A stretch of 64,000 bases of DNA from a virus (taxonomy: Duplodnaviria > Caudoviricetes), in IMG/VR virus record IMGVR_UViG_3300010356_000998, positions 44,743 to 108,742 of that record; one strand, written 5' to 3'. The notes under the pieces are model-generated. The model did not search any database and was not told where the DNA came from. It saw only the letters and a list, made by a program, of their open reading frames with translations. Position numbers and translations under genes: made by a program. Shown here piece by piece: positions 3,774 to 52,516 of this stretch. Position 1 is the first letter of the stretch, and each line of letters opens with the position of its first letter.

Positions 3774-4011
3774 TGTTTTTTATTACTCCAATAACGATCG
3801 CACGTTTGTGAAGTGGCAACTTAATATGTTGCGTTTCATTATTATCATTAAATCTTTTTACATTGACTAACGTAACATGATGTTTCATTGCAGGAATTCC
3901 TACATTTTCTTCCCAAAATACAAGAGGTAGATCTTTTAAATCTACCCCTTGATTTTTAATATCTGTCAGTAATTTAAGTAATTCTTCAGCTGTAACCATA
4001 GTTATCCACAT
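3766..4011 (-). CDS. hypothetical protein
   Basis: 81 aa ORF overlapping the RNR end and the helicase start. Confidence 0.55.
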   Translation of the reverse strand: MWITMVTAEELLKLLTDIKNQGVDLKDLPLVFWEENVGIPAMKHHVTLVNVKRFNDNNETQHIKLPLHKRAIVIGVIKNID

Positions 4012-7442: not shown

Positions 7443-7811
7443 TCATAAACTTGCATTAAGTTTTTCCTTGTCAGTCTCTCGCGGCTTATTGATTAAATTG
7501 TCTATGATTTCTTTTAAGATAGCTTTTTCGTCAATGTTAAAGCTATTAGTTAATGTAAGTATTCTATTTAGTTTATTTAACAATTTATATTCAATCTGTC
7601 CGACGGGATTGACCTCTCCAGGTGTTTCCCCGTTAGCCTTATTCAGACCCTCAATTTTTTGAGATTCGGAATTTTTGTTAAATGGATTATCTTGATATAC
7701 AATATTTTCAAGTTTCGTAAGTCTATCATAAAGTTCTTGTATTTGTTTTTGAAAGAGTTTTTCATTTCTGTCAATTCTTTCAAATTGTTTAATATTAAAT
7801 TGTTGACTCAT
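7443..7811 (-). CDS. ORF overprinting the intron 1 catalytic core (helical/coiled-coil-like)
   Basis: 122 aa open frame spanning the P, Q and R elements and ending in S; coding status unproven. Confidence 0.5.
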   Translation of the reverse strand: MSQQFNIKQFERIDRNEKLFQKQIQELYDRLTKLENIVYQDNPFNKNSESQKIEGLNKANGETPGEVNPVGQIEYKLLNKLNRILTLTNSFNIDEKAILKEIIDNLINKPRETDKEKLNASL

Positions 7812-7864: not shown

Positions 7865-8744
7865 ACGGATTTGTGGTTACCCCTTTGTATTTTGGATAAA
7901 CTGTATCAGGAGAATAATCCCAGTGTCTATCTACAAATAATATTCCGGGTTCTGCTGTACTATGTGCAGCTTCTATCATCTTATCCCAAAGTTCTCGTGC
8001 TTTTATTTCTTTAGTAATAGATGGATTATCTGAATCGCAAGGCCATCTCAATGTATAATTTGTATTTTGTTTAACAGCTTGCATAAAGTCATCTCTTACC
8101 ATTACTGAAATATTAGCTCCAGTTACTTTAGTTAGATCTTTTTTAATAGTTATAAAATGTTCAACATCAGGATGTCGAACGTCTATGCTTAACATTAAAG
8201 CACCTCTACGGCCATTTTGTGCTACTTCTCTTGTACTATTAGAAAATCTCTCCATAAAACTAACTGCTCCTGTAGAAGTACCAGCAGCATTAGTTACAGG
8301 TGTATTATTTGGTCTCAATGTAGAAATATCAAGACCTACACCACCTCTTCTTTTCATTAACTGAACTAATTGCTCGTCTTTTTGAAGAATACCTCCATAA
8401 GAATCTTCAGGTTGCCCTACCACAAAACAGTTACTTAAAGATCCTATTTTTTTAGAACCTAGCATTGACATTATAGATCCTTGTGGTACAACATACTTAA
8501 AGTGTTTAAACAAATCATAAATACGTTCTTCTGAAAGATATTCTCTTTCTTGTCCATATTTACTTAATTCTGTTCTGTTTTCGGAGTTTTCTTCTTTTTC
8601 TTTGTAATTAGATTCAATTCTAGCAAATTCTTTTGCCATTCTTTTGTGCATGTCATCGGGAGTCGTTTCTCCTTCTTGAGCATACTTTCCTTGCCATACT
8701 GACATGGCTAATTCATCTTGATTAAAGTAATTGGATAATGACAT
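7865..8744 (-). CDS. nrdJ: class II ribonucleotide reductase, exon 1
   Basis: SLSNCFV, RRGGVG, QNGRRGALM, ANISV, EPGILF, TTNP; exons total 880+967+658=2505 nt (834 aa plus stop). Confidence 0.92.
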
Positions 8745-8747
8745 ATA

Positions 8748-10595
8748 TTAAAATAAAGTAGGTTTTTTATCAAATAATGATAATTCTTCTTTTACATTTT
8801 TTATATAAAAATTGTAATTAATATCATAATTTAAAGCATTAGTATCTGTGATAGTATTCAATAGTGTTTGATACCATGCTTTACCTTTGATAGATGGGGC
8901 ATTTAGATATTCACTTCTACCATCGTTATATAACTTTTTAAATACACTACCTTTATTAGAGATAATATATCTAATTGTTTTATGTAATGGTTTTTTATTT
9001 GCGTTCTTATCATATTCGTATAATTCAGCTCCTTGTCTTACTCTAATACCAAAACAAAAATCGAATATATTACTATGTTCTTTAATTGTTTTTTCTATTG
9101 GAGTGTTATATAAAAACCAGTTATAAACAGCTATTCTTTCAATTAATGATGATTTATTTTTATGTAAAGGAATATTTTCTATTTCATAAGCACCTTTACA
9201 TTTAGTTTTACCATTTGTATAAACTGCGATATAGTTATTTACATCTCTAATCATCATTTTTGAATAGTATGCATATTCTAATTGAAGTTTTGTAATAGAT
9301 TCCCATTCTTTACAAATATCATAATACATAGATTCATACTCTTTTTTTAATTTAAGAGTTAAACCATCTGTATTTATTTGAATAAGTGTACTATCTGGAA
9401 TATTCATTAACTTTTCAGCTAACATTGTAAGCATAAGTTGACCATTTATAGTAGTTGTATAAGTATATTTAGGATCATACAACCAACTAGTAGATTCATT
9501 ACTTTTACCGTACACACTATTAGCAGCTTCTTTTAGTCCAGCAATAATAGCTTTATCCCCATCTGGTTTAGCTTTTTCAGCTAATCTTACAGCAACAATA
9601 TCATTATTATAAATAGTAGCAAAATCTTCTCCTAAATGTTCAGGATATAGTTTATTTACTACCGCAATACTTGGATATAGACTTGCTACATCAGCATCTA
9701 TTATAATATAATCATCTTCTGCAGATATAATGATATTTTTTAAACTACCGTGAATACCACCCAATCCATAATCAAATTGAAAATGTTTATAAATAGCGGA
9801 TTTTGAAATAGAACTTTCAGAATTAATATTTAAATTTTTAAAATATTCTAATAATTCATTAAATTCTTTTGATTCAAATTTAATGTAATCAAATATAATG
9901 TCTGATAATTTAATATTACTTCTATAAGTTCTTAAATCTCTTACATTCCATTTATTTAATCCACATTTGTTAGAATATAATTCTAACATTAAATCACTTC
10001 CTATTTTTGAATTACTAGCATTTAAAAAATTTAATTTATATTTTTCTGTCAAGTTAATTCTTAACTCTATTTCTTTTTTATTTTTATTAAATAAACTTTC
10101 AGTAGAATTAACGTCATTAATACAATATTGTATTATTTTATCAGCTTCTTCTCTATTACTAATTGGTTTGAAAAAAGGCATGTCTTCTATGTTAGGCCAA
10201 TCTATCATATACTGACACCATTTTAAACCAACTCTTCTGTTTTTATTATCTAAATGTAATATTTTATAAATGTCAAGATTAAAAATATGAAAATCTTTTA
10301 CTTTATAAGGTTTCCTATCTTGTTCTATTAAATATGTTTGAACAAAATTAAATATTTCTTCAGCTGATTTTTCAATACTCCAAATGTATTCTATAACTTG
10401 AGCATCAAAATCTAAATTATTAAATCCTCGCAATGCTTTTACTTCATTACGTAAAAATGCCCATAGAGGCTCATAATCGTCTCTGTAAGGCGATATCTCA
10501 AACACTCTGTAATCTTCTTCGTCTTTTGCTTTAAATACAGCACAAAAGAAATTAGGTAGTGTTTCGAGGTCATACGTCCAAACTTTTTTAATCAT
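8748..10595 (-). CDS. family B DNA polymerase
   Basis: Exonuclease motifs YDLET and FNNLDFD; polymerase motifs DVASLYPS, KEAANSVYG, NTDG. Confidence 0.92.
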   Translation of the reverse strand: MIKKVWTYDLETLPNFFCAVFKAKDEEDYRVFEISPYRDDYEPLWAFLRNEVKALRGFNNLDFDAQVIEYIWSIEKSAEEIFNFVQTYLIEQDRKPYKVKDFHIFNLDIYKILHLDNKNRRVGLKWCQYMIDWPNIEDMPFFKPISNREEADKIIQYCINDVNSTESLFNKNKKEIELRINLTEKYKLNFLNASNSKIGSDLMLELYSNKCGLNKWNVRDLRTYRSNIKLSDIIFDYIKFESKEFNELLEYFKNLNINSESSISKSAIYKHFQFDYGLGGIHGSLKNIIISAEDDYIIIDADVASLYPSIAVVNKLYPEHLGEDFATIYNNDIVAVRLAEKAKPDGDKAIIAGLKEAANSVYGKSNESTSWLYDPKYTYTTTINGQLMLTMLAEKLMNIPDSTLIQINTDGLTLKLKKEYESMYYDICKEWESITKLQLEYAYYSKMMIRDVNNYIAVYTNGKTKCKGAYEIENIPLHKNKSSLIERIAVYNWFLYNTPIEKTIKEHSNIFDFCFGIRVRQGAELYEYDKNANKKPLHKTIRYIISNKGSVFKKLYNDGRSEYLNAPSIKGKAWYQTLLNTITDTNALNYDINYNFYIKNVKEELSLFDKKPTLF

Positions 10596-11118
10596 TTAAT
10601 AATTCAATGACTTTATGTTTGATCGCACAATTTTTCCAAGCTTTATAAGTTAACCAATCAGGAGTTTCTAATCTTCTTAAATAAAGTTGAACAGCCAGTC
10701 TTAATTCAGCATGTTCAAAGTTATTTAATAAATCAAATTTTTCTTTTAACTTATTAATTTTGGTTTGAAGTTTTCGTTCTTCAGATTTTAAATGCCAATT
10801 AATAGCATCACGATAATTACTAGTAGTGTATGCTTTTATACCATCAGTATGATAATTAGGTGGGTCTTCAATAGGTTTTTCTACATAATCTACAGGATCG
10901 GTAGATCCAACGACTTGTTCATAAGGAACTCTAAATACACCTCTAATTCTCATACCGTCTTCTGTCAAACACTCATAAATTTCTCCAGCATATTCTTCTC
11001 CATTAACAACTTTTTTTTCTATATGTCCTTTCCAACCTCTTAATCCGAGGTATTTCATTTTCTTAACATATTTAGGCTGTCCTTTTTGACTAGCCCATCT
11101 AGAATACAGTAAATCCAT
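10588..11118 (-). CDS. hypothetical protein
   Basis: 176 aa ORF coupled to both neighbours. Confidence 0.65.
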   Translation of the reverse strand: MDLLYSRWASQKGQPKYVKKMKYLGLRGWKGHIEKKVVNGEEYAGEIYECLTEDGMRIRGVFRVPYEQVVGSTDPVDYVEKPIEDPPNYHTDGIKAYTTSNYRDAINWHLKSEERKLQTKINKLKEKFDLLNNFEHAELRLAVQLYLRRLETPDWLTYKAWKNCAIKHKVIELLND

Positions 11119-13585: not shown

Positions 13586-14155
13586 CTATTTATAAATTCC
13601 TTGTGATAGTACAGTAGGGATGTATGTTACGTACATTTTACAAAATTGAGGATATAATTCTAATAATCCTTTTAATGCTTTTTCAGCATCATATTTTGTT
13701 TCATATACGCCATAATGAGTGATCCAGTTACCATCTTGTAATTGACTTACTAAAAAATCTTTTGGTCTATTTTTAGCTGGAGTTTTTAAATATTCAAATC
13801 TAACAGTCCAACAATTACCATAAGACATTTTTCTAACTTTAGTACCAGTTTCAATAGTATCTACAGATAAAATTTGAATAATGTTGTAACAACCGTCAAG
13901 AATTGCATTAATACGCACTTCTTTAGTTTTTTCTACAATATCATCTTGATTTTCATAATAATGTAATACACCTGTATATTTAGGGTGTTTTGTACTACAA
14001 ATATCTGGTTTGTAGTTTTTAGGAGTTGTGATAGATACGGAATACATTGCTGGACTAGGATTTGAACTAGTTTCAACAATAGGTGGACAATATACTTGAC
14101 TGTAAATATGTACAGTCTGAAGTATTGAAATAAGAATAAAAATAATCTTTTTCAT
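13586..14155 (-). CDS. secreted hypothetical protein, SPOR-like C-terminus
   Basis: Signal peptide MKKIIFILISILQ; GVYETKYDAEKALKGL pattern. Confidence 0.5.
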   Translation of the reverse strand: MKKIIFILISILQTVHIYSQVYCPPIVETSSNPSPAMYSVSITTPKNYKPDICSTKHPKYTGVLHYYENQDDIVEKTKEVRINAILDGCYNIIQILSVDTIETGTKVRKMSYGNCWTVRFEYLKTPAKNRPKDFLVSQLQDGNWITHYGVYETKYDAEKALKGLLELYPQFCKMYVTYIPTVLSQGIYK

Positions 14156-14169
14156 TGTTTAATTTTTAG

Positions 14170-14242
14170 TGATCCCGACAGGGGTCGAACCTGTAGCCTA
14201 CAGATTAGAAATCTGTTGCACTATCCTTTGTGCTACGGGACC
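14170..14242 (-). tRNA. tRNA-Arg(UCU)
   Basis: Cloverleaf; anticodon arm ACAGA TTTCTAA TCTGT. Confidence 0.92.
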
Positions 14243-14249
14243 AGGTTAT

Positions 14250-14399
14250 TTAATGTTTACAACTACCGTCACAATCTGCAACAACTTTACATCGTTTTAC
14301 ACAATGCCAAGTTATTTTTAACAATGGTTTACAAATACATGGAAATTGATGTCCATTAATTGTAACCCAACCAGTATCGTCACAAAGTTTACATTTCAT
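14250..14399 (-). CDS. small Cys-rich putative zinc-binding protein (49 aa, not in ORF track)
   Basis: MKCKLCDDTGW...FPCIC...HCVKRC...DCDGSCKH fills the gap between two tRNAs. Confidence 0.6.
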   Translation of the reverse strand: MKCKLCDDTGWVTINGHQFPCICKPLLKITWHCVKRCKVVADCDGSCKH

Positions 14400-14414
14400 A
14401 TAAATTTATTTTAG

Positions 14415-14487
14415 TGGGCCCAGCAGGACTTGAACCTACAACCCTCAAATTATGAGTTTGGCGCTCTACCGATTGAGCTATGGGCCC
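14415..14487 (-). tRNA. tRNA-CAU, probably Ile2 (lysidine-modified)
   Basis: GGGCCCA/TGGGCCC acceptor stem, CTCATAA loop; body resembles bacterial Ile2 more than Met. Confidence 0.8.
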
Positions 14488-14530
14488 GGTGTTTTAATAC
14501 ACACTTTTAATTGTAATATAATATTTTTGA

Positions 14531-14628
14531 TGACACTAGCAGGAATTTAACCTACCACAACCGCAGAAGAACTAGTATTACGTTGGTTCGCCCACATACA
14601 AATGTAGTGTTCAGGAACATGTAGTGTC
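14531..14628 (-). ncRNA. tRNA-like RNA (acceptor stem and T-arm, non-canonical body)
   Basis: GACACTA/TAGTGTC stem plus discriminator A; GTAGG TTAAATT CCTGC T-arm; no normal D or anticodon arm. Confidence 0.55.
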
Positions 14629-14634
14629 GAGTTT

Positions 14635-14904
14635 TTAATTATAGATAGATTGTAATAATCTACCTAAAATGTGTTTGTTTTTTGGATTCCATCCGTTGAT
14701 TACTCTCATGGTGGAATCAACATATAAATTCGATAATCCACGATGTATTACATGTGGCTTACTTGAATTCATAATGTTATCTATTTGTTGAGTATTTAAT
14801 TCAGGTATTTCAAATTGTACATCAGCAAATGATTTATAAGCCTGTGTACAATCTTCATAATCTGAAATAAATAATTGCGGATGCTGTTCTGGTGATATTA
14901 TCAT
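14635..14904 (-). CDS. hypothetical protein
   Basis: 89 aa ORF with ATGA overlap to the upstream gene. Confidence 0.55.
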   Translation of the reverse strand: MIISPEQHPQLFISDYEDCTQAYKSFADVQFEIPELNTQQIDNIMNSSKPHVIHRGLSNLYVDSTMRVINGWNPKNKHILGRLLQSIYN

Positions 14905-15323
14905 GATGTTACATATTTAACAGCGTTAATGTAATCGTTTTTTAAAGGACTACCTGCATAATATTTCTTAATTCTTTTTATTACTTCTGCAGGATATTCT
15001 CCATGTATACCACTACCATTACATATCCATACTTTTCCTTTATAACCGTAAATGGTTCTTTCTTTATAACCCAAATGTCTAGATACTTTAATTTTGGGTA
15101 CATATACAATTTGGTTATAATTATAAATAATAAGACTAACTAAAACTATAAATACTGGAAAAGCAATTAATGTTTTGAAAAATTCTACTTCTATTGGATA
15201 AGTTTTCTTTTCCGAATTTAATAAAGAAATTGCTGACTCTAAATCTAATGCTAAATTATAATTTAAATAATTGTTAATTAAATTTAGCATAATTAAAATC
15301 ATTAAAAGAATTAAAAGTTCCAT
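14901..15323 (-). CDS. membrane hypothetical protein
   Basis: Two hydrophobic segments; start moved to ATG 15323 because the upstream extension lies in a structured RNA. Confidence 0.55.
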   Translation of the reverse strand: MELLILLMILIMLNLINNYLNYNLALDLESAISLLNSEKKTYPIEVEFFKTLIAFPVFIVLVSLIIYNYNQIVYVPKIKVSRHLGYKERTIYGYKGKVWICNGSGIHGEYPAEVIKRIKKYYAGSPLKNDYINAVKYVTS

Positions 15324-15348
15324 AATTAAATATTTAAGAATGATAAAA

Positions 15349-15477
15349 ATCAAAGAAGAAAAATGATAAAACTGTCTTTGTTGCATACGGGGCTCGAACC
15401 CGTAATTCAAAATCCGAAATTTTTGCGATCAACCAATTGATCTAATGCGAAGTAAGTTTTATCTAACTATCTTTGAT
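15349..15477 (-). ncRNA. Y RNA-like (YrlA-type architecture): long terminal helix capped by a tRNA-like domain
   Basis: ATCAAAGA/TCTTTGAT and GATAAAACT/AGTTTTATC helices enclose a D-arm (GATC/GATC), an anticodon-like arm and a T-arm (ACGGG TTCGAGC CCCGT); lies near the TROVE gene. Confidence 0.7.
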
Positions 15478-15554
15478 TGGTGGCGGGTACGGGACTTGAA
15501 CCCGTGATCTCCAGGTTATGAGCCTGGCGAGATACCAACTTCTACCAACCCGCT
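15478..15554 (-). tRNA. tRNA-Met(CAU), initiator-like, CCA encoded
   Basis: A1:C72 mismatch, CTCATAA loop, ACCA 3' end. Confidence 0.85.
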
Positions 15555-15569
15555 ATTTGTTTCTTCAAA

Positions 15570-15749
15570 TCACTTAATAAGTATGATTATCGCTAATACC
15601 ATCAAACTTGATACGACAGCAACCGTTGAAGTTATCCGTTCATATTTAGGGTGTGGTGTATCTTCAAGATACCTGTAAGTTAGGTTAAGTGCAGTTGCAG
15701 TAAAGGCAACTCCGAACAAAAACATCTCTATACAAAGTATCCAATTCAT
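15570..15749 (-). CDS. small membrane protein (two TM segments)
   Basis: Two hydrophobic helices; start moved to ATG 15749. Confidence 0.5.
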   Translation of the reverse strand: MNWILCIEMFLFGVAFTATALNLTYRYLEDTPHPKYERITSTVAVVSSLMVLAIIILIK

Positions 15750-15980
15750 TTCAAAAAGGGAGTCTTGATCCCTATGCACCCGCATTAGAGGAGTTCACTC
15801 GCTGGTTAATTCCAGATGTGCATCTTAACTCCATCTATCAACAGTTTTACGGTCAAGACTCTTTTTTTACCTGGTCGCCTTTCGACTTAGAGGACTTTGC
15901 CCAGAGTTTTATGGTGAGGTGTCTTTCGACAAGGATGCCATCGTTTTAGCAACCCAACTCCCAGGGACTATAACCATCGG

Positions 15981-16104
15981 TGGGGGAGGCTAGAATCGAA
16001 CTAGCGACAGTCAGCTTTGCAGGCTGATACTCTACCGATGAAACTCTTAAATAACTACCTTTCGGAGAAAATTTAAAGAGTTGTTGTAACTGAGTTACTC
16101 CCCC
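15981..16104 (-). tRNA. tRNA with GCA (Cys) anticodon and a 51-nt D-loop insertion
   Basis: GGGGGAG/CTCCCCC acceptor, ACTC/GAGT D-stem, TCAGC CTGCAAA GCTGA anticodon arm, GCTAG TTCGATT CTAGC T-arm; insert at 16037-16087. Confidence 0.8.
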
Positions 16105-16186
16105 ATTAGTTTTAAAACACTATCCCTGCATACGCACATCCGGGATCAGACGTAGACCAACGCCGTATGTTATAGTGTTTTGTATT

Positions 16187-16540
16187 TTAGGCTACTTGAA
16201 AAGTATTTTGTTTCTTAGCACCTCTTGTGCGTCTTCGATAATTGTGATTCATCTTGAGAATATCACACAATTCTCGACACTTGGTAACAAAGAAATCATT
16301 TCGATCTCTTATGGGTAATCCCTCACTGTCAAATTTCCATTGTGGATCAACCATAGCTTTACCGGCCGCTTTTGTACGACCTGTTTTGCGACAAAATTGA
16401 TCTGCTCCATGACAATAAGACATACCAATTCGAAGTTCGTCGTTAACGAAGATGCCGGCAAATGATGCACGGCTTTTGTACAAACGTTTTTTTCCGCGCT
16501 GTTCGGGCGGATTAACGTGAAAAAACATTAGCTTTTCCAT
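16187..16540 (-). CDS. hypothetical phage protein
   Basis: GMSYCHGADQFCRKTGR motif; start moved out of tRNA-Trp. Confidence 0.6.
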   Translation of the reverse strand: MEKLMFFHVNPPEQRGKKRLYKSRASFAGIFVNDELRIGMSYCHGADQFCRKTGRTKAAGKAMVDPQWKFDSEGLPIRDRNDFFVTKCRELCDILKMNHNYRRRTRGAKKQNTFQVA

Positions 16541-16570
16541 AAATTTGTTTTTAAGTGAAAAAATATTTAG

Positions 16571-16643
16571 CGAATGCGGCAGGATTCGAACCTGCAACCT
16601 TTGGTTTTGGAGACCAATACTCTACCAATTGAGCTACGCAAAC
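16571..16643 (-). tRNA. tRNA-Trp(CCA)
   Basis: TTGGT CTCCAAA ACCAA anticodon arm, G73; two U-U mismatches in the acceptor stem. Confidence 0.82.
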
Positions 16644-16732
16644 GTTTTATTTAAGATAGCCGCCCAGGACAAGTAAACTGAATTACGATCGGTGTTCCTG
16701 CTTCCTTCAGCTATACGGCTAACTTAAATTTG

Positions 16733-16807
16733 ACCTGCTAGAGAGGGCTTGAACTCCTCAACTACTTACTTATAAGGCATATACTTTACCAGTTGAACTA
16801 TATCCGC
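16733..16807 (-). pseudogene. degenerate tRNA-like sequence (UAU loop)
   Basis: GCGGATA TAGTTCAACTGGTA...CTTATAA...GTTCAAG pattern with broken stems. Confidence 0.45.
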
Positions 16808-16939
16808 CAATAGAGGTTTATCATCCTTTGATGACTTAATGGTTGTCACTGCCATTTTTCAGGTATTCTTAAGTAACCCTGTTCCATTTTCCTCTATTGA
16901 CGGAACGACTAGACTCGAATTAAATTACGCAAGCGTTTT

Positions 16940-17128
16940 TTAAGATAATTCTTTATATTTTTCAATTATTCTTATATAGAATAGAATACCACATAAAGCA
17001 TATAAGAATTCTTTTTTTGTTAAATTAGTACCATACTCATCAAGTAAATCATCTATTGACATACCTAAATTTACCAACCATTGTGATACATGAATAATTA
17101 ATAAAAATATTATAAAAAATGTTATCAT
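16940..17128 (-). CDS. small membrane protein
   Basis: Hydrophobic ORF from ATG 17128. Confidence 0.5.
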   Translation of the reverse strand: MITFFIIFLLIIHVSQWLVNLGMSIDDLLDEYGTNLTKKEFLYALCGILFYIRIIEKYKELS

Positions 17129-17140
17129 AATCGAAAAGTT

Positions 17141-17207
17141 AACGGGTAAATGGGGAGAGTTATGTTGTGACACCAAAAAGTCGAAGTAACTCTCCCCTAA
17201 CCACGTT
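17141..17207 (-). ncRNA. minimal Y RNA-like module
   Basis: AACG TGGTTA GGGGAGAGT TACTTC GAC..GTC ACAACATA ACTCTCCCC ATTTACC CGTT; same loops as 15349-15477. Confidence 0.65.
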
Positions 17208-17222
17208 TATATTTTAAAGAAT

Positions 17223-17375
17223 TTACTGTTTGCTAGGTGATGCTATTGTTAAACCTGTGCAAAATGATAATAGTAGCATGAAAATATAAAAATATTCATC
17301 ACTACTACACATTGTAACAATAACACCAATTACTGTAATAACAGTAAATAACAAAGCTTTTTGTTTATATGTCAT
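17223..17375 (-). CDS. small two-TM protein coupled to the TROVE gene (50 aa, not in ORF track)
   Basis: ATGA overlap with the TROVE stop; MTYKQKALLFTVITVIGVIV... Confidence 0.5.
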   Translation of the reverse strand: MTYKQKALLFTVITVIGVIVTMCSSDEYFYIFMLLLSFCTGLTIASPSKQ

Positions 17376-19015
17376 ACAAATTCAATTGATTTAACTGTTT
17401 GAATTATTTCATTTGGATTGAATTCCACATGTTTGATTTGTTCAAACACATGATTTCCATATCCATAGATATAATGTACTTTTGGCCCAACTAATTGAGT
17501 TGTGCCGTAGGCTGCTAAATCAACTGAATACACGTAAGGTCTTCCACACTTTTCTATATAATCCTGATATGCTTTGTAAGTATTACCTACATTACATTCA
17601 TGATCAGAGAAAATGAATACACGATCGTACTTTTTAGTAGAAGCGAGTTTCCAAGCTTCTGCTAAATTAGTTGAGCCCATTTCAGATTTAAATCCAGAAG
17701 CAATTGTAAACACATCATCACTGATTTTATAGTTTACATAATTTGCTTTAGACCCAAATCTAATAATATCCGCATTTGTAGCTTTAGCGATAGTAGCTGC
17801 TAACAAACACGCTTTATCACCAGCGTATGATTTGTAAGTAACTGCATTATTTCGATTGCCGTTCTTTACATAACCATTTAGCATCCACATTGAACCAGAC
17901 TGATCAACAATAACAAGAGTATTACCTGTAAGCAATTCAGCGAAGTTTGGAATACTTTGCTTATAACCTACTGTTAATTCTTGTACAATTCTTCTTGATT
18001 CAGGAGAATTGAATTCATTGTTAATTACTTCAATAGCAATGTCGAAATGATATGGCATTATTTTACCTTGTATAACCTTGTTAGGGTCAGATACAAGAGC
18101 ACATAACATATTTACAGTATCTCTTGTCGGATTTGACAAAAGAATACTACGGATATTGCGCAGTGCTGCCATAATACCAAGACGACCTTCTGACAGCAAC
18201 TGATTCCAGTTTTGCTCTTTAGCTTCTTGTAGAAGTTGTTGAGCTTCTTGCTGGTTAATATTACCTTCACGTACAGCACGAGCAATTTCTTGCCCAGCTT
18301 CACTCTGAGCATTCTCCCATGTATGAGCAGGAATGTTATTTCCTCTCATAATATAGTCAAGTGCTGCAACACTATGTGCTTTTTCTAATGATATTTCTGG
18401 TGTTTTCCAAGGATTAGGATGCACCATATTAGCAACATCACGAATTTGTTTCGTGTATTTGCCAAAATTATACAAATCCAATCCTTCAATCGTCATAGCA
18501 AATCCTTTCTTCATGGAAGCAGGCAGGGATTTGTTATTATTCAATTTATAATATGCCATAATTTCAGACATATCGTCAGTTCTGAAAATAACACCGCCTT
18601 TCTTAGTTTTTTTATTCCAAGCAGAATAAAAATACTTTGCCCATGGTTGACCAGAAATGTATGGAGCAATTGTTACTGCAGCTACATGAGATACAGAACG
18701 TAGACCTTCTCCCAAACAGCGAGAATAAACAATACATTGTGCTGTGAAATATGGATTTTCTTTAGCACATTCGATAACAACAGCTTTCAAATTACGAATC
18801 TGTTGAGATTCTGATTTATAATACTGTTGTTCTAGTTTTAGCGTATTAAGCATAGAAAGTAGTTTTAACCACTTATCCATATTATACGCTGGTGAGCCAC
18901 TGATATTAGTAGCTTTTGGTGGTGCTGCTGTTTGTTTCTTTTTATGTGAAACAAATGAAGCAGTTTGATTCTTACCATCCAACTTTTTTTTGAGTTCGGA
19001 GTTAAATTTTGACAT
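17372..19015 (-). CDS. TROVE-domain / vWA RNA-binding protein (Ro60/Rsr-like)
   Basis: N-terminal TNISGSPAY, HTWE, MAALRNIRSI motifs of TROVE; vWA MIDAS VDQSGSM, GSTN, IFSDHE; C-terminal SVDLAAYG. Confidence 0.85.
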   Translation of the reverse strand: MSKFNSELKKKLDGKNQTASFVSHKKKQTAAPPKATNISGSPAYNMDKWLKLLSMLNTLKLEQQYYKSESQQIRNLKAVVIECAKENPYFTAQCIVYSRCLGEGLRSVSHVAAVTIAPYISGQPWAKYFYSAWNKKTKKGGVIFRTDDMSEIMAYYKLNNNKSLPASMKKGFAMTIEGLDLYNFGKYTKQIRDVANMVHPNPWKTPEISLEKAHSVAALDYIMRGNNIPAHTWENAQSEAGQEIARAVREGNINQQEAQQLLQEAKEQNWNQLLSEGRLGIMAALRNIRSILLSNPTRDTVNMLCALVSDPNKVIQGKIMPYHFDIAIEVINNEFNSPESRRIVQELTVGYKQSIPNFAELLTGNTLVIVDQSGSMWMLNGYVKNGNRNNAVTYKSYAGDKACLLAATIAKATNADIIRFGSKANYVNYKISDDVFTIASGFKSEMGSTNLAEAWKLASTKKYDRVFIFSDHECNVGNTYKAYQDYIEKCGRPYVYSVDLAAYGTTQLVGPKVHYIYGYGNHVFEQIKHVEFNPNEIIQTVKSIEFV

Positions 19016-51466: not shown

Positions 51467-52516
51467 ATGGCATATCTACAATATAGAGAGATAACCATAG
51501 ACCATTTAGAAGTACCTAACACAGACCAGACAGATTTCCCAGTATTAATTTCAGGAACCTACAGTTACTTGGCAACAATAGCTAATGGTGGTAAGGTAAA
51601 TAGCAGTAACGGATACGATATTGCTTTTTATGCAGACTCTGGTTTAACTGATCAACTTTCGCATGAAGTAGAGAGTTATAATGCTACTACAGGAGAAGTA
51701 ATTTTTTGGGTAAAAGTTCCTACTGTTTCTCACTCTGTAGATACCACTATTTATCTTGCATATGGTAATGTAGACATAAGTACATCTCAAGAAAACATAA
51801 ATGATGTATGGTCAAATAACTTTAGAGAAGTTTTTCATATAAAAGATGGTACAACTTTAATAATAGAAGATTCTACATCATTAGGTAATGATCCAGGAAG
51901 TGTAGCAAGTTTATCAGCTGTCAATGCCAAAATAGGCGGTGGTGCTTCTAGTGGGGTTAATTCGATAGCAAATGGATTTAGTAGTAATCTTTCACCATCT
52001 GGAAATAGTAGAACAATAACCGCATGGGTAAAAAGAGATAATTCTACAAGAGGAGGTATTATTAGTACAAGACCTGCAAACGGAACTCAAGGTTGGGTAT
52101 TTACAATTAACTTTGGTAATGTAGCGGGACGGATTACATACTTTAATACAGGGGGTGCAATAGTAAATATAACTAGTAGCTTGGCTCGAGATACTTGGGG
52201 TTACGTTACGGCTACTTGGGATGGTACTGAAGCTGAGGTATTTTTAAATGGAACTTCATTAGGGACAGCGACTGGTAATTCAGATAATGCTTCTGGTATA
52301 AATGGGCAAATATTTTGCGAGACTACTTTTGGAGGAGTTCAACATCCCTTAAGAGGAGATCTGGATGAAGTAAGGATAGCTCACACTATTAGAAGTTCTG
52401 ACTGGTTAACAACAGAATATAATAATCAAAACAATCCGTCAAAATTTTACAGAATCGGTGCAGAAATACCGATAAGTGTGGCTGAAACTAACTTTATGTT
52501 TTGGTTTACATTTTAA
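51467..52516 (+). CDS. DUF2341 + LamG/ConA-like lectin domain protein
   Basis: TDFPVLI, GYDIAF, WVKVP, IYLAYGN; TITAWVK...GDLDEVRI. Confidence 0.75.
   Translation: MAYLQYREITIDHLEVPNTDQTDFPVLISGTYSYLATIANGGKVNSSNGYDIAFYADSGLTDQLSHEVESYNATTGEVIFWVKVPTVSHSVDTTIYLAYGNVDISTSQENINDVWSNNFREVFHIKDGTTLIIEDSTSLGNDPGSVASLSAVNAKIGGGASSGVNSIANGFSSNLSPSGNSRTITAWVKRDNSTRGGIISTRPANGTQGWVFTINFGNVAGRITYFNTGGAIVNITSSLARDTWGYVTATWDGTEAEVFLNGTSLGTATGNSDNASGINGQIFCETTFGGVQHPLRGDLDEVRIAHTIRSSDWLTTEYNNQNNPSKFYRIGAEIPISVAETNFMFWFTF

Follow-up and report, generated by a model that had tools for sequence, protein, structure and literature searches.

The window analysed here, the right-hand 64 kb of a 99%-complete, 108,742-bp virus record from IMG/VR, comes from a phage with a crAss-type major capsid gene in this stretch (Pfam Crass_capsid, E 1.5e-44). 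On the minus strand lie a gene for a Ro60/Rsr orthologue (rsr) and, with the rsr stop codon 1,894 nucleotides (nt) upstream, an RNA element that directly follows a tRNA-Met gene. With activated sludge as its source and a crAss-like affiliation, the phage is likely to have a Bacteroidota host. The RNA element, in which a conserved stem module closes around a tRNA-like cloverleaf, is the subject of our analysis, and we consider it likely to be a Y RNA of the phage. The genes and the parts of the element, in 5' to 3' order of the minus strand, are as follows.

17372-19015 (-): rsr, 547 aa, with a TROVE ring and a vWA domain with a D-x-S-G-S MIDAS (Pfam, profile, Foldseek, PHROG).
15478-15554 (-): tRNA-Met(CAU) with an encoded CCA, directly upstream of the element (ARAGORN; Rfam tRNA, 51.2 bits).
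15348-15478 (-): the whole RNA of about 129-131 nt, in which the conserved stem module carries the tRNA-like cloverleaf (sequence, fold and the covariance model R1, described below).
15470-15478 (-): outer stem, 5' strand, AAUCAAAGA; its first A doubles as the last A of the tRNA-Met CCA (perfect complement of 15348-15356).
15464-15469 (-): 5' loop motif UAGUUA, in which a bulged U precedes A-G, paired with C-U of the 3' motif (family consensus; proposed Ro60/Rsr contact).
15455-15463 (-): inner stem, 5' strand, GAUAAAACU (perfect complement of 15365-15373).
15448-15455 (-): conserved motif UUACUUCG where the module meets the tRNA-like domain (nearly invariant among the 50 relatives).
15383-15448 (-): tRNA-like domain, comprising acceptor remnant, U8-A9, D arm, G26, anticodon-like arm, 4-nt variable loop and T arm (Rfam, ARAGORN).
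15448-15445 with 15386-15383 (-): acceptor remnant GCAU/AUGC, 4 bp (sequence).
15442-15427 (-): D arm, loop AAUUGGUU (sequence).
15425-15408 (-): anticodon-like arm, 8-nt loop AUUUCGGA at 15413-15420 (sequence).
15403-15387 (-): T arm, loop UUCGAGC (sequence).
15374-15382 (-): 3' linker AACAAAGAC past the acceptor remnant, with no CCA (sequence).
15365-15373 (-): inner stem, 3' strand, AGUUUUAUC (complement, covariation).
15357-15364 (-): 3' loop motif AUUUUUCU; family consensus AAUUUUCU (alignment).
15348-15356 (-): outer stem, 3' strand, UCUUUGAUU (complement, covariation).

The cloverleaf is recognized by tRNA-finding programs. ARAGORN labels 15379-15451 as tRNA-Arg(UCG), and the Rfam tRNA model (RF00005) scores the element at 39.2 bits, above its 29-bit threshold, with mismatches at 1-72 and 3-70; no other Rfam family matches the element at a credible score. 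The nucleotides of the tertiary contacts are all present (U8, A14, A15-U48, G18-G19 and G53-U54-U55-C56-G57-A58). An initial annotation, made from the sequence of the window, had described a D arm, an anticodon-like arm and a T arm. All three arms are there, but the anticodon-like arm departs from the canonical 5-bp stem with a 7-nt loop, in that its loop has 8 nt, or 7 if an A is bulged in the stem. At the acceptor, four pairs are contiguous and five of seven form overall, and the 3' side continues through AACAAAGAC into the module, in place of the 7-bp acceptor with a free 3' end that is expected of a tRNA. The proposal in the initial annotation that the acceptor is cut to 4 bp and continues into a conserved module, leaving a tRNA mimic with no chargeable end, was borne out in both sequence and fold.

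Minimum free energy folding with RNAfold recovers both long helices of the module (-28.9 kcal/mol, z -2.6). The outer helix has 8 bp, running from 15477 onward opposite 15356-15349, and 15477 directly follows the encoded CCA, as the initial annotation had stated for the first base of the RNA; the helix extends to 9 bp if the last A of the CCA (15478) pairs with 15348. Natural variants, which are DNA contigs of the same phage lineage, include some with 15348 A>G, and because this change breaks the outermost pair we regard 8 bp of the outer stem as secure. Further changes among the variants are a compensatory A-U to G-C exchange in the D stem (15441 with 15428), the loss of one U, by which the 3' loop comes nearer to the consensus AAUUUUCU, and, in one contig, a canonical 7-nt loop, CUUCUAA.

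Relatives of the element were sought around Rsr genes, using 48 loci from IMG/VR together with the closer relatives L049-L051, whose Rsr proteins are 59-62% identical to that of the window; the sampled loci leave out the closest relatives, P0006-P0012. At the syntenic spot, L049 has the same design directly after its own tRNA-Met, and in L050 and L051 the design stands 4-8 nt before a tRNA. The helices of relatives are spelled with different letters and are still complementary: the outer stem reads ACAUCAA/UUGAUGU, the inner stem AAUAGGG/CCCUAUU or GUAAGUG/CACUUAC, and the acceptor remnant GAUA/UAUC. Searches by sequence returned little, in that blastn-short of the element against the loci gave T-arm matches only, Rfam at gathering thresholds reported only tRNAs in six Rsr loci, and megablast of 14000-17000 against GenBank phages had no match. 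A regular-expression scan indicated that the closing module surrounds three kinds of cargo, namely a normal-order tRNA-like domain, a permuted one (T arm, capped acceptor, D arm) and almost nothing.

The covariance model R1 was built from an alignment of 15 normal-order examples. RNAalifold on these 15 sequences predicts the outer and inner stems, the stems of the D, anticodon and T arms, and the bulged U with two pairs, in which A-G of UAG meets C-U of UUUCU; 23 of the 28 pairs show compensatory changes. In 677 kb, R1 gave 58 full-length matches that scored 65 bits or more. The scores of ordinary tRNAs did not exceed 58 bits, and in most of these tRNAs only the tRNA core (approximately model positions 24-107) aligned. 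The window element scores 85 bits (E 9e-15), which is far beyond chance, and is the sole strong match across the 108.7-kb phage genome. Early regular-expression matches in the window at 51962, 47442 and 1306 were rejected as false positives; R1 matched none of them in its search of the phage genome.

In an alignment of 50 distinct relatives, 97.1% of cells pair, compared with 70.8% in shuffles, and double changes occur at 26 of the 28 pairs; the covariation score is 0.719, against 0.203 for shuffled alignments and at most 0.138 when partners are slid. The outer helix covaries across the family. The 5' loop motif has the consensus U-A-G-U/C-A-A over the 50 rows, with the A-U loop pair kept in 49 (and swapped once to G-C) and the G-C pair likewise kept in 49. 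Fitting these rows to the R1 model favours the structure, and it is because of the slid controls and the independent RNAalifold result that we take the signal to be real. Altogether, approximately 90 full-length family matches were obtained, some of them redundant.

Some members of the family have acceptors of 6-7 bp, and these match the Rfam tRNA model in full (50-61 bits, model positions 1-71). The AAC that lies 3' of the acceptor's 3' strand recurs in this longer-acceptor subclass. The members that score as complete tRNAs are as follows.

L003, 5525-5597.
L016, 1494-1566 and 1630-1702.
L024, 413-485.
L044, 3049-3121.
L046, 5837-5908.

Since they score as full tRNAs, standard pipelines will annotate such members as ordinary tRNA genes, and the family accounts for 'degenerate' or spurious tRNA calls in phage genomes. 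Two further arrangements were seen in these loci. In L002, L004, L005, L016 and L017, a normal-order tRNA-like Y RNA stands directly after rsr and is followed 5-10 nt on by a permuted YrlA-like RNA, the two sharing one closing module (for example, L016 3701-3826 and then 3836-3984). L044 carries a phage-borne tmRNA at 2027-2393 (Rfam, 60.6 bits), approximately 1 kb downstream of the end of an rsr fragment and in the same tRNA/Y-RNA array.

The family and rsr are tightly linked, in whichever direction the search is made. From protein to RNA, 37 of the 51 Rsr loci, examined to 7 kb on either side and on both strands, hold at least one R1 match; all 57 full-length matches lie on the rsr strand and within 3.6 kb, 42 of them within 1 kb. 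From RNA to protein, a scan of IMG/VR with a 15-nt RNA motif yielded 79 new loci, 39 of them with a full R1 match. An Rsr homologue was found in 32 of these 39 R1-positive loci, always on the same strand (32 of 32), and in none of the 40 motif-only loci. Among Bacteroidota, 12 of 151 sampled genomes carry TROVE. The ten with an ordinary bacterial TROVE had no R1 match even with filters off (best 29 bits), and in the two with a phage-type Rsr, matches of 82-91 bits stood next to the gene. When 185,579 species genomes were searched with two peptide motifs from this Rsr clade, only four contigs, all of metagenome-assembled genomes, were returned. In what was sampled, the RNA family travels with a largely phage-borne Rsr clade.

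Pfam TROVE matches the protein encoded by rsr at 22.9 bits, which is at the cut-off; the protein has more than 2,000 homologues, most of them with PF05731 and some named '60 kDa SS-A/Ro' by the Joint Genome Institute (JGI). A phmmer search of PDB sequences with the protein found nothing, and matches came from a profile alone: built from 24 homologues, it matches PDB 9KOP/9L5Y, 1YVP and 2NVO, the matched proteins being Ro60 of the Thermus phage phiLo (9KOP, 9L5Y), Xenopus Ro60, human Ro60 and Deinococcus radiodurans Rsr. For an AlphaFold (AF2) model (pLDDT 78), the 13 best Foldseek matches are Ro60 structures without exception, the same ones as for the profile (E 1e-10 to 5e-14), and PHROG 850, 'RNA-binding protein', matches with E 6e-35. 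The protein has the TROVE HEAT-repeat ring and the vWA/MIDAS domain by which Ro60/Rsr is recognized. Against GenBank phages, tblastn returned only matches below 30% identity.

Belonging with a Ro60 gene is the defining trait of Y RNAs, and it is for this reason that we place the element in that class. Known Y RNAs share the strand of rsr and are encoded no more than 4 kb from it (PMC4201824), which also holds for the element. Its paired ends form a long stem with a conserved bulged helix, comprising an 8-9 bp outer stem, the bulged U, two conserved pairs, an internal loop and a 9-bp inner stem, and the tRNA-like domain provides a second module at the far end. We therefore favour the reading that the element is a phage Y RNA that binds the phage Ro60 via its stem, is not chargeable and presents a tRNA shape to an effector, and we hold this to be probable. 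Its fold, the covariation, the family and the tight linkage to rsr come directly from the computations above.

Binding by Rsr, the processing route and the effector are suggested by analogy with the Y RNA families named below. The RNA is probably excised from a long transcript that runs from rsr through the tRNA array, and it is plausible that maturation of the abutting tRNA-Met sets its 5' end. Release by tRNA-processing enzymes appears plausible because the tRNA-Met junction has zero nt, because L049 shows the same abutment and the tRNAs of L050 and L051 follow after 4-8 nt, and because D. radiodurans Yrn2, tRNA-Asp and Yrn1 are made as one common precursor (PMC4201824). How a CCA-ending tRNA would be separated from a base-paired 5' end is not obvious. 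Cleavage by RNase P inside the element is unlikely because it has only four acceptor pairs, and relatives with 6-7 pairs might be cleaved in the manner of Mycobacterium smegmatis YrlA, an RNase P substrate that acquires CCA (PMC4201824).

In the mature RNA, the module (UAGUUA ... UUACUUCG ... AUUUUUCU) would offer Rsr a site made of stem, bulged U, internal loop and stem, and would lead via the 4-bp acceptor into an otherwise complete, normal-order tRNA fold that, for want of a free 3' end, should not be chargeable. Once bound to Rsr, the RNA would gate the Ro60 ring or cavity, and its tRNA-like end would bind an effector and protect the RNA. The effector would most likely be host PNPase, as in the RYPER of Deinococcus and in phiLo, with a tRNA-recognising enzyme as the alternative. 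PNPase is the best-supported candidate because Yrn1 tethers Rsr to PNPase in RYPER and because the Ro60 of phiLo, the closest solved relative, forms such complexes. The role of 'adaptor' that the initial annotation had suggested fits this Y-RNA tether model.

Several points weigh against this interpretation. The public sequencing runs that hold the window are activated-sludge metagenomes, none of them recorded as RNA. The element falls short of the 80-bit gathering threshold of the Yrn1 model (RF01053) and is unmatched at E<=10 by this model and by that of YrlA alike. The link to Yrn1 is suggested by one GC-rich relative, L079 (R1, 82 bits), which matches the Rfam Deinococcus_Y_RNA model over its full length at 35.7 bits, and by our reading of that model's consensus. 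The element has neither of the published Rsr-contact motifs (GNCGAA, CGAA); its conserved motifs are UAGUUA and UUACUUCG. Finally, the conservation of U33 and of a purine at position 37, described below, is beyond what a simple tether or stability role explains.

The locus holds further features.

17141-17207 (-): second module copy, 67 nt, with a tiny hairpin as cargo (UGGUUAG ... UUACUUCG ... AUUUACC; regular expression; R1, 33 bits).
15981-16104 (-): third use of the module, in a tRNA(GCA)-like RNA where it is loop-closed, permuted and inserted before the D arm (Rfam tRNA, 33.4 bits, model positions 6-65).
16187-16534 (-): ORF (open reading frame) of approximately 115 aa; in relatives, L049 7755-8102, L050 8458-8796 and L051 7824-8168.

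The 67-nt copy is found 165 nt past the rsr stop codon, with a small membrane-like ORF on either side, and has homologues at the same place in L049 (approximately 7665-7715) and L050 (7985-8052); from its sequence, it looks like a minimal Y RNA of the YrlB or Yrn2 type. The tRNA(GCA)-like RNA has a 7-bp acceptor (GGGGGAG/CUCCCCC) and carries the module, capped by CC-GAAA-GG, between the 5' strand of the acceptor and the D arm; conserved counterparts occur in L049 (approximately 8150-8280) and L050 (approximately 8805-8920). The ORF of approximately 115 aa (FHVNPPEQRG..., with a CHGxDQFxRK motif) follows rsr in all four crAss-like relatives, and its product could be a partner of the Rsr-RNA system; neither it nor the neighbouring small ORFs matched a Pfam or PHROG family. 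Scans for promoters and terminators gave no excess over shuffles. RtcB and Rnl-type RNA ligases were not found in the phage genome, and a repair operon of the rsr-rtcB type is therefore not the model here.

Two other non-coding stretches were noted. The window at 14531-14628 (-) and L049 at 10555-10650 contain a conserved structured stretch that shares GUGGUAGGUUAAAUUCCUGC, a T-arm-like hairpin, upstream of a second tRNA(CAU); the stretch in the window overlaps a weak Rfam YrlA match (26.5 bits, 14429-14585) that also spans the tRNA at 14414-14487. At 16660-16940 (-), approximately 280 nt of non-coding sequence have tRNA-like pieces (UUCGAGUC, UAGUUCAACUGGUA, GAGUUCAAGCCCUC) around a long insert, and this may be another composite tRNA-like RNA.

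The anticodon-like loop calls for separate consideration. Of the 47 seven-nt loops in the 50-member alignment, 43 have U33 and 46 have a purine at position 37, while the triplet itself varies. Loops of the 5-bp-acceptor subclass read C32-U33-NNN-A37, and G36-G37 is kept in most of one subclass with longer acceptors, which includes the window element. G36-G37 is a determinant of the m1G37 enzyme TrmD. Because these signatures are kept while the triplet varies, there is room for a role as bait or sensor toward readers of the anticodon loop. That the family of Ro60-tethered complete cloverleaves serves in this way, for readers or for cutters such as anti-phage anticodon nucleases, seems to us unlikely; if true, the particle formed by the phage Ro60 would serve counter-defence or tRNA surveillance and be more than a PNPase tether.

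Alternatively, the element might act in cis, as an Rsr operator or as a processing or stability element in a polycistronic transcript, through which it would control tRNA maturation or the membrane-protein gene that follows (14901-15323). Only 25 nt separate the 3' end of the stem from the next start codon, there is no terminator-like or promoter-like excess between the genes, and three copies of the module occur along one transcription unit, all of which would suit such an element. However, its context, compared by position relative to rsr and tRNAs, varies, as other phages place the RNA before or after rsr and before or after tRNAs, and a full tRNA fold with conserved tertiary nucleotides exceeds the needs of an operator. 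Moreover, Yrn1 and YrlA, which are RNAs of the same plan, are stable and trans-acting (PMC4201824). We regard a cis function as quite unlikely.

A further possibility is that the element itself is a decoy, a role that the initial annotation had also named, and that it acts on factors that attack or read anticodon loops (anti-phage anticodon nucleases or tRNA-modifying enzymes), with Rsr merely stabilising or positioning it. The loop signatures described above are consistent with this proposal, as is the position of the RNA within a phage tRNA array. Such arrays are often linked to tRNA-targeting defence. Nevertheless, the loop in the window is non-canonical, with 8 nt, both the nuclease and its target are hypothetical, and the phage genome showed no RtcB or Rnl-type ligase, which would suggest a cycle of cutting and repair; the proposal is speculative, and we judge it very unlikely for this element.

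Least probable of all, and hardly credible in our view, is that the locus encodes a real if odd tRNA-Arg(UCG), released for decoding by RNase P and a 3' nuclease, with the flanking helices as a signal for precursor processing: although a tRNA is reported by ARAGORN as well as by Rfam, the element has every tertiary-contact nucleotide and a UCG triplet with G37, the subclass with 6-7 bp acceptors matches the full tRNA model so that some relatives could be processed, and the RNase P cleavage of M. smegmatis YrlA offers a precedent, the element has only four contiguous acceptor pairs (five of seven in total, with the mismatches noted above), an 8-nt anticodon loop and no CCA; its positions 1-3 are not free to pair because they are part of UUACUUCG, a motif conserved even in module RNAs without cargo; the orthologues in L049, L050 and L051 have differing 'anticodons', two with C33, and are uncalled by ARAGORN; and the flanks form a covarying, rsr-linked family of which ordinary tRNAs match only the core positions.

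The reading of the element as a phage Y RNA, if correct, adds a third and common form of bacterial-type Y RNA to the permuted YrlA and the weakly tRNA-like Yrn1, namely a near-complete tRNA in normal order that is mounted by its acceptor on a Ro60-type stem. This form connects Yrn1 with tRNA and suggests that Y RNAs may arise from tRNA genes in tRNA arrays, and it supplies candidate RNA partners for the TROVE proteins of crAss-like phages. In a full-text literature search, with many subscription papers outside its reach, we found neither a Y RNA with a complete normal-order cloverleaf joined via its acceptor end nor a partner RNA for any crAss-like TROVE protein, and the claim to novelty is accordingly 'not found' rather than 'never described'. 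Already known are Ro60 with its Y RNAs and the tRNA-like Y RNAs YrlA and Yrn1, as well as phage Ro60 proteins with Y-like RNAs in mycobacteriophages (PMC4201824) and phiLo (PMC12135203) and the TROVE gene of crAss001 (PMC8375218).

Among phages, Bacteroides phage crAss001 resembles ours in being crAss-like and in having a TROVE gene. The gene is transcribed early, and its product, only 25% identical to the Rsr of the window, was termed 'a possible ribonucleoprotein component' (PMC8375218, PMC10136315); a term search of these two papers showed no mention of a partner RNA. In both structure and profile, the window Rsr is matched best by the Ro60 of Thermus phage phiLo (PDB 9KOP, 9L5Y), at 16-18% identity in Foldseek alignments. 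That protein binds host PNPase and Y-like RNAs of the phage (PMC12135203), which offers a working model in which host PNPase is hijacked, and its Y-like RNAs, Yrl1 and Yrl2, are likewise encoded adjacent to the gene. They differ from the element in that they are stem-bulge-stem RNAs, found via a CGAA motif, for which no tRNA-like domain was reported (PMC12135203).

The initial annotation had called the element YrlA-like. The comparison holds insofar as the RNA is a tRNA mimic on a conserved module beside a Ro60 gene, which the initial annotation had left unmentioned: YrlA (RF02553), known from Salmonella, Mycobacterium and mycobacteriophages, is also linked to Ro60 and has a long terminal stem and a non-chargeable tRNA-like effector domain. 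Membership of the YrlA family does not follow, however. YrlA is a circularly permuted tRNA with V region, T arm, loop-closed acceptor and D arm and with no anticodon loop (PMC4201824, 10.1101/312249); the Ro60 stem replaces its anticodon stem (10.1101/312249), and a GNCGAAN0-1G motif stands near its 5' end (PMC4201824). The element, in contrast, has its D, anticodon and T arms in normal order, with the anticodon arm present, extends its stem from an open acceptor end and lacks GNCGAA. A search of 15330-15480 with the YrlA model, which has a gathering threshold of 69 bits, gave no match even at E<=10. Permuted siblings with the same stem module in other phage loci do match YrlA over its full length, at 29-40 bits and below threshold.

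The closest plan is that of D. radiodurans Yrn1 (RF01053). In a comparison with the model consensus, the element follows the same succession of stem, bulge, stem, UUACUUC, acceptor-like pairs, D-like region, hairpin and T arm. Both open with an outer stem, of 8 bp in the consensus, and then have a bulge of 1 nt, two pairs, an internal loop and an inner stem; GGUUACUUC follows, a part of the element's junction motif that also stands in the Rfam Deinococcus_Y_RNA consensus. Acceptor-like pairs (ACUUC/GAAGU in Yrn1) lead on to the D-like region, the hairpin and the T arm, and in neither RNA is this order permuted. Yrn1, too, has rsr as its neighbour on the same strand and shares a transcript with a tRNA (PMC4201824). 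Nucleotides of Yrn1 at the bulge/loop junction are protected by Rsr (PMC4201824), and the protected segment, GGgCCgaA, aligns with the UAGUAA of the element's family. The two differ in that the D region of Yrn1 is unpaired and there is no variable loop, whereas the element has a complete D arm, anticodon-like arm and variable loop; the middle hairpin of Yrn1 has four pairs in the Rfam consensus, or a 5-bp stem and a 6-nt loop (PMC4201824), and its likeness to tRNA was termed 'less evident' by the authors (10.1101/312249). In addition, the bulged nucleotide is C in Yrn1 and U in the element, the loop sequences differ, and Yrn1 is bacterial whereas the element is phage-borne. Given that its normal-order plan fits the RF01053 consensus and that the traits of YrlA are absent, the element, which belongs to neither Rfam family by score, is best seen as a Y RNA of the Yrn1 type, with an effector end that became, or remained, a complete tRNA cloverleaf.

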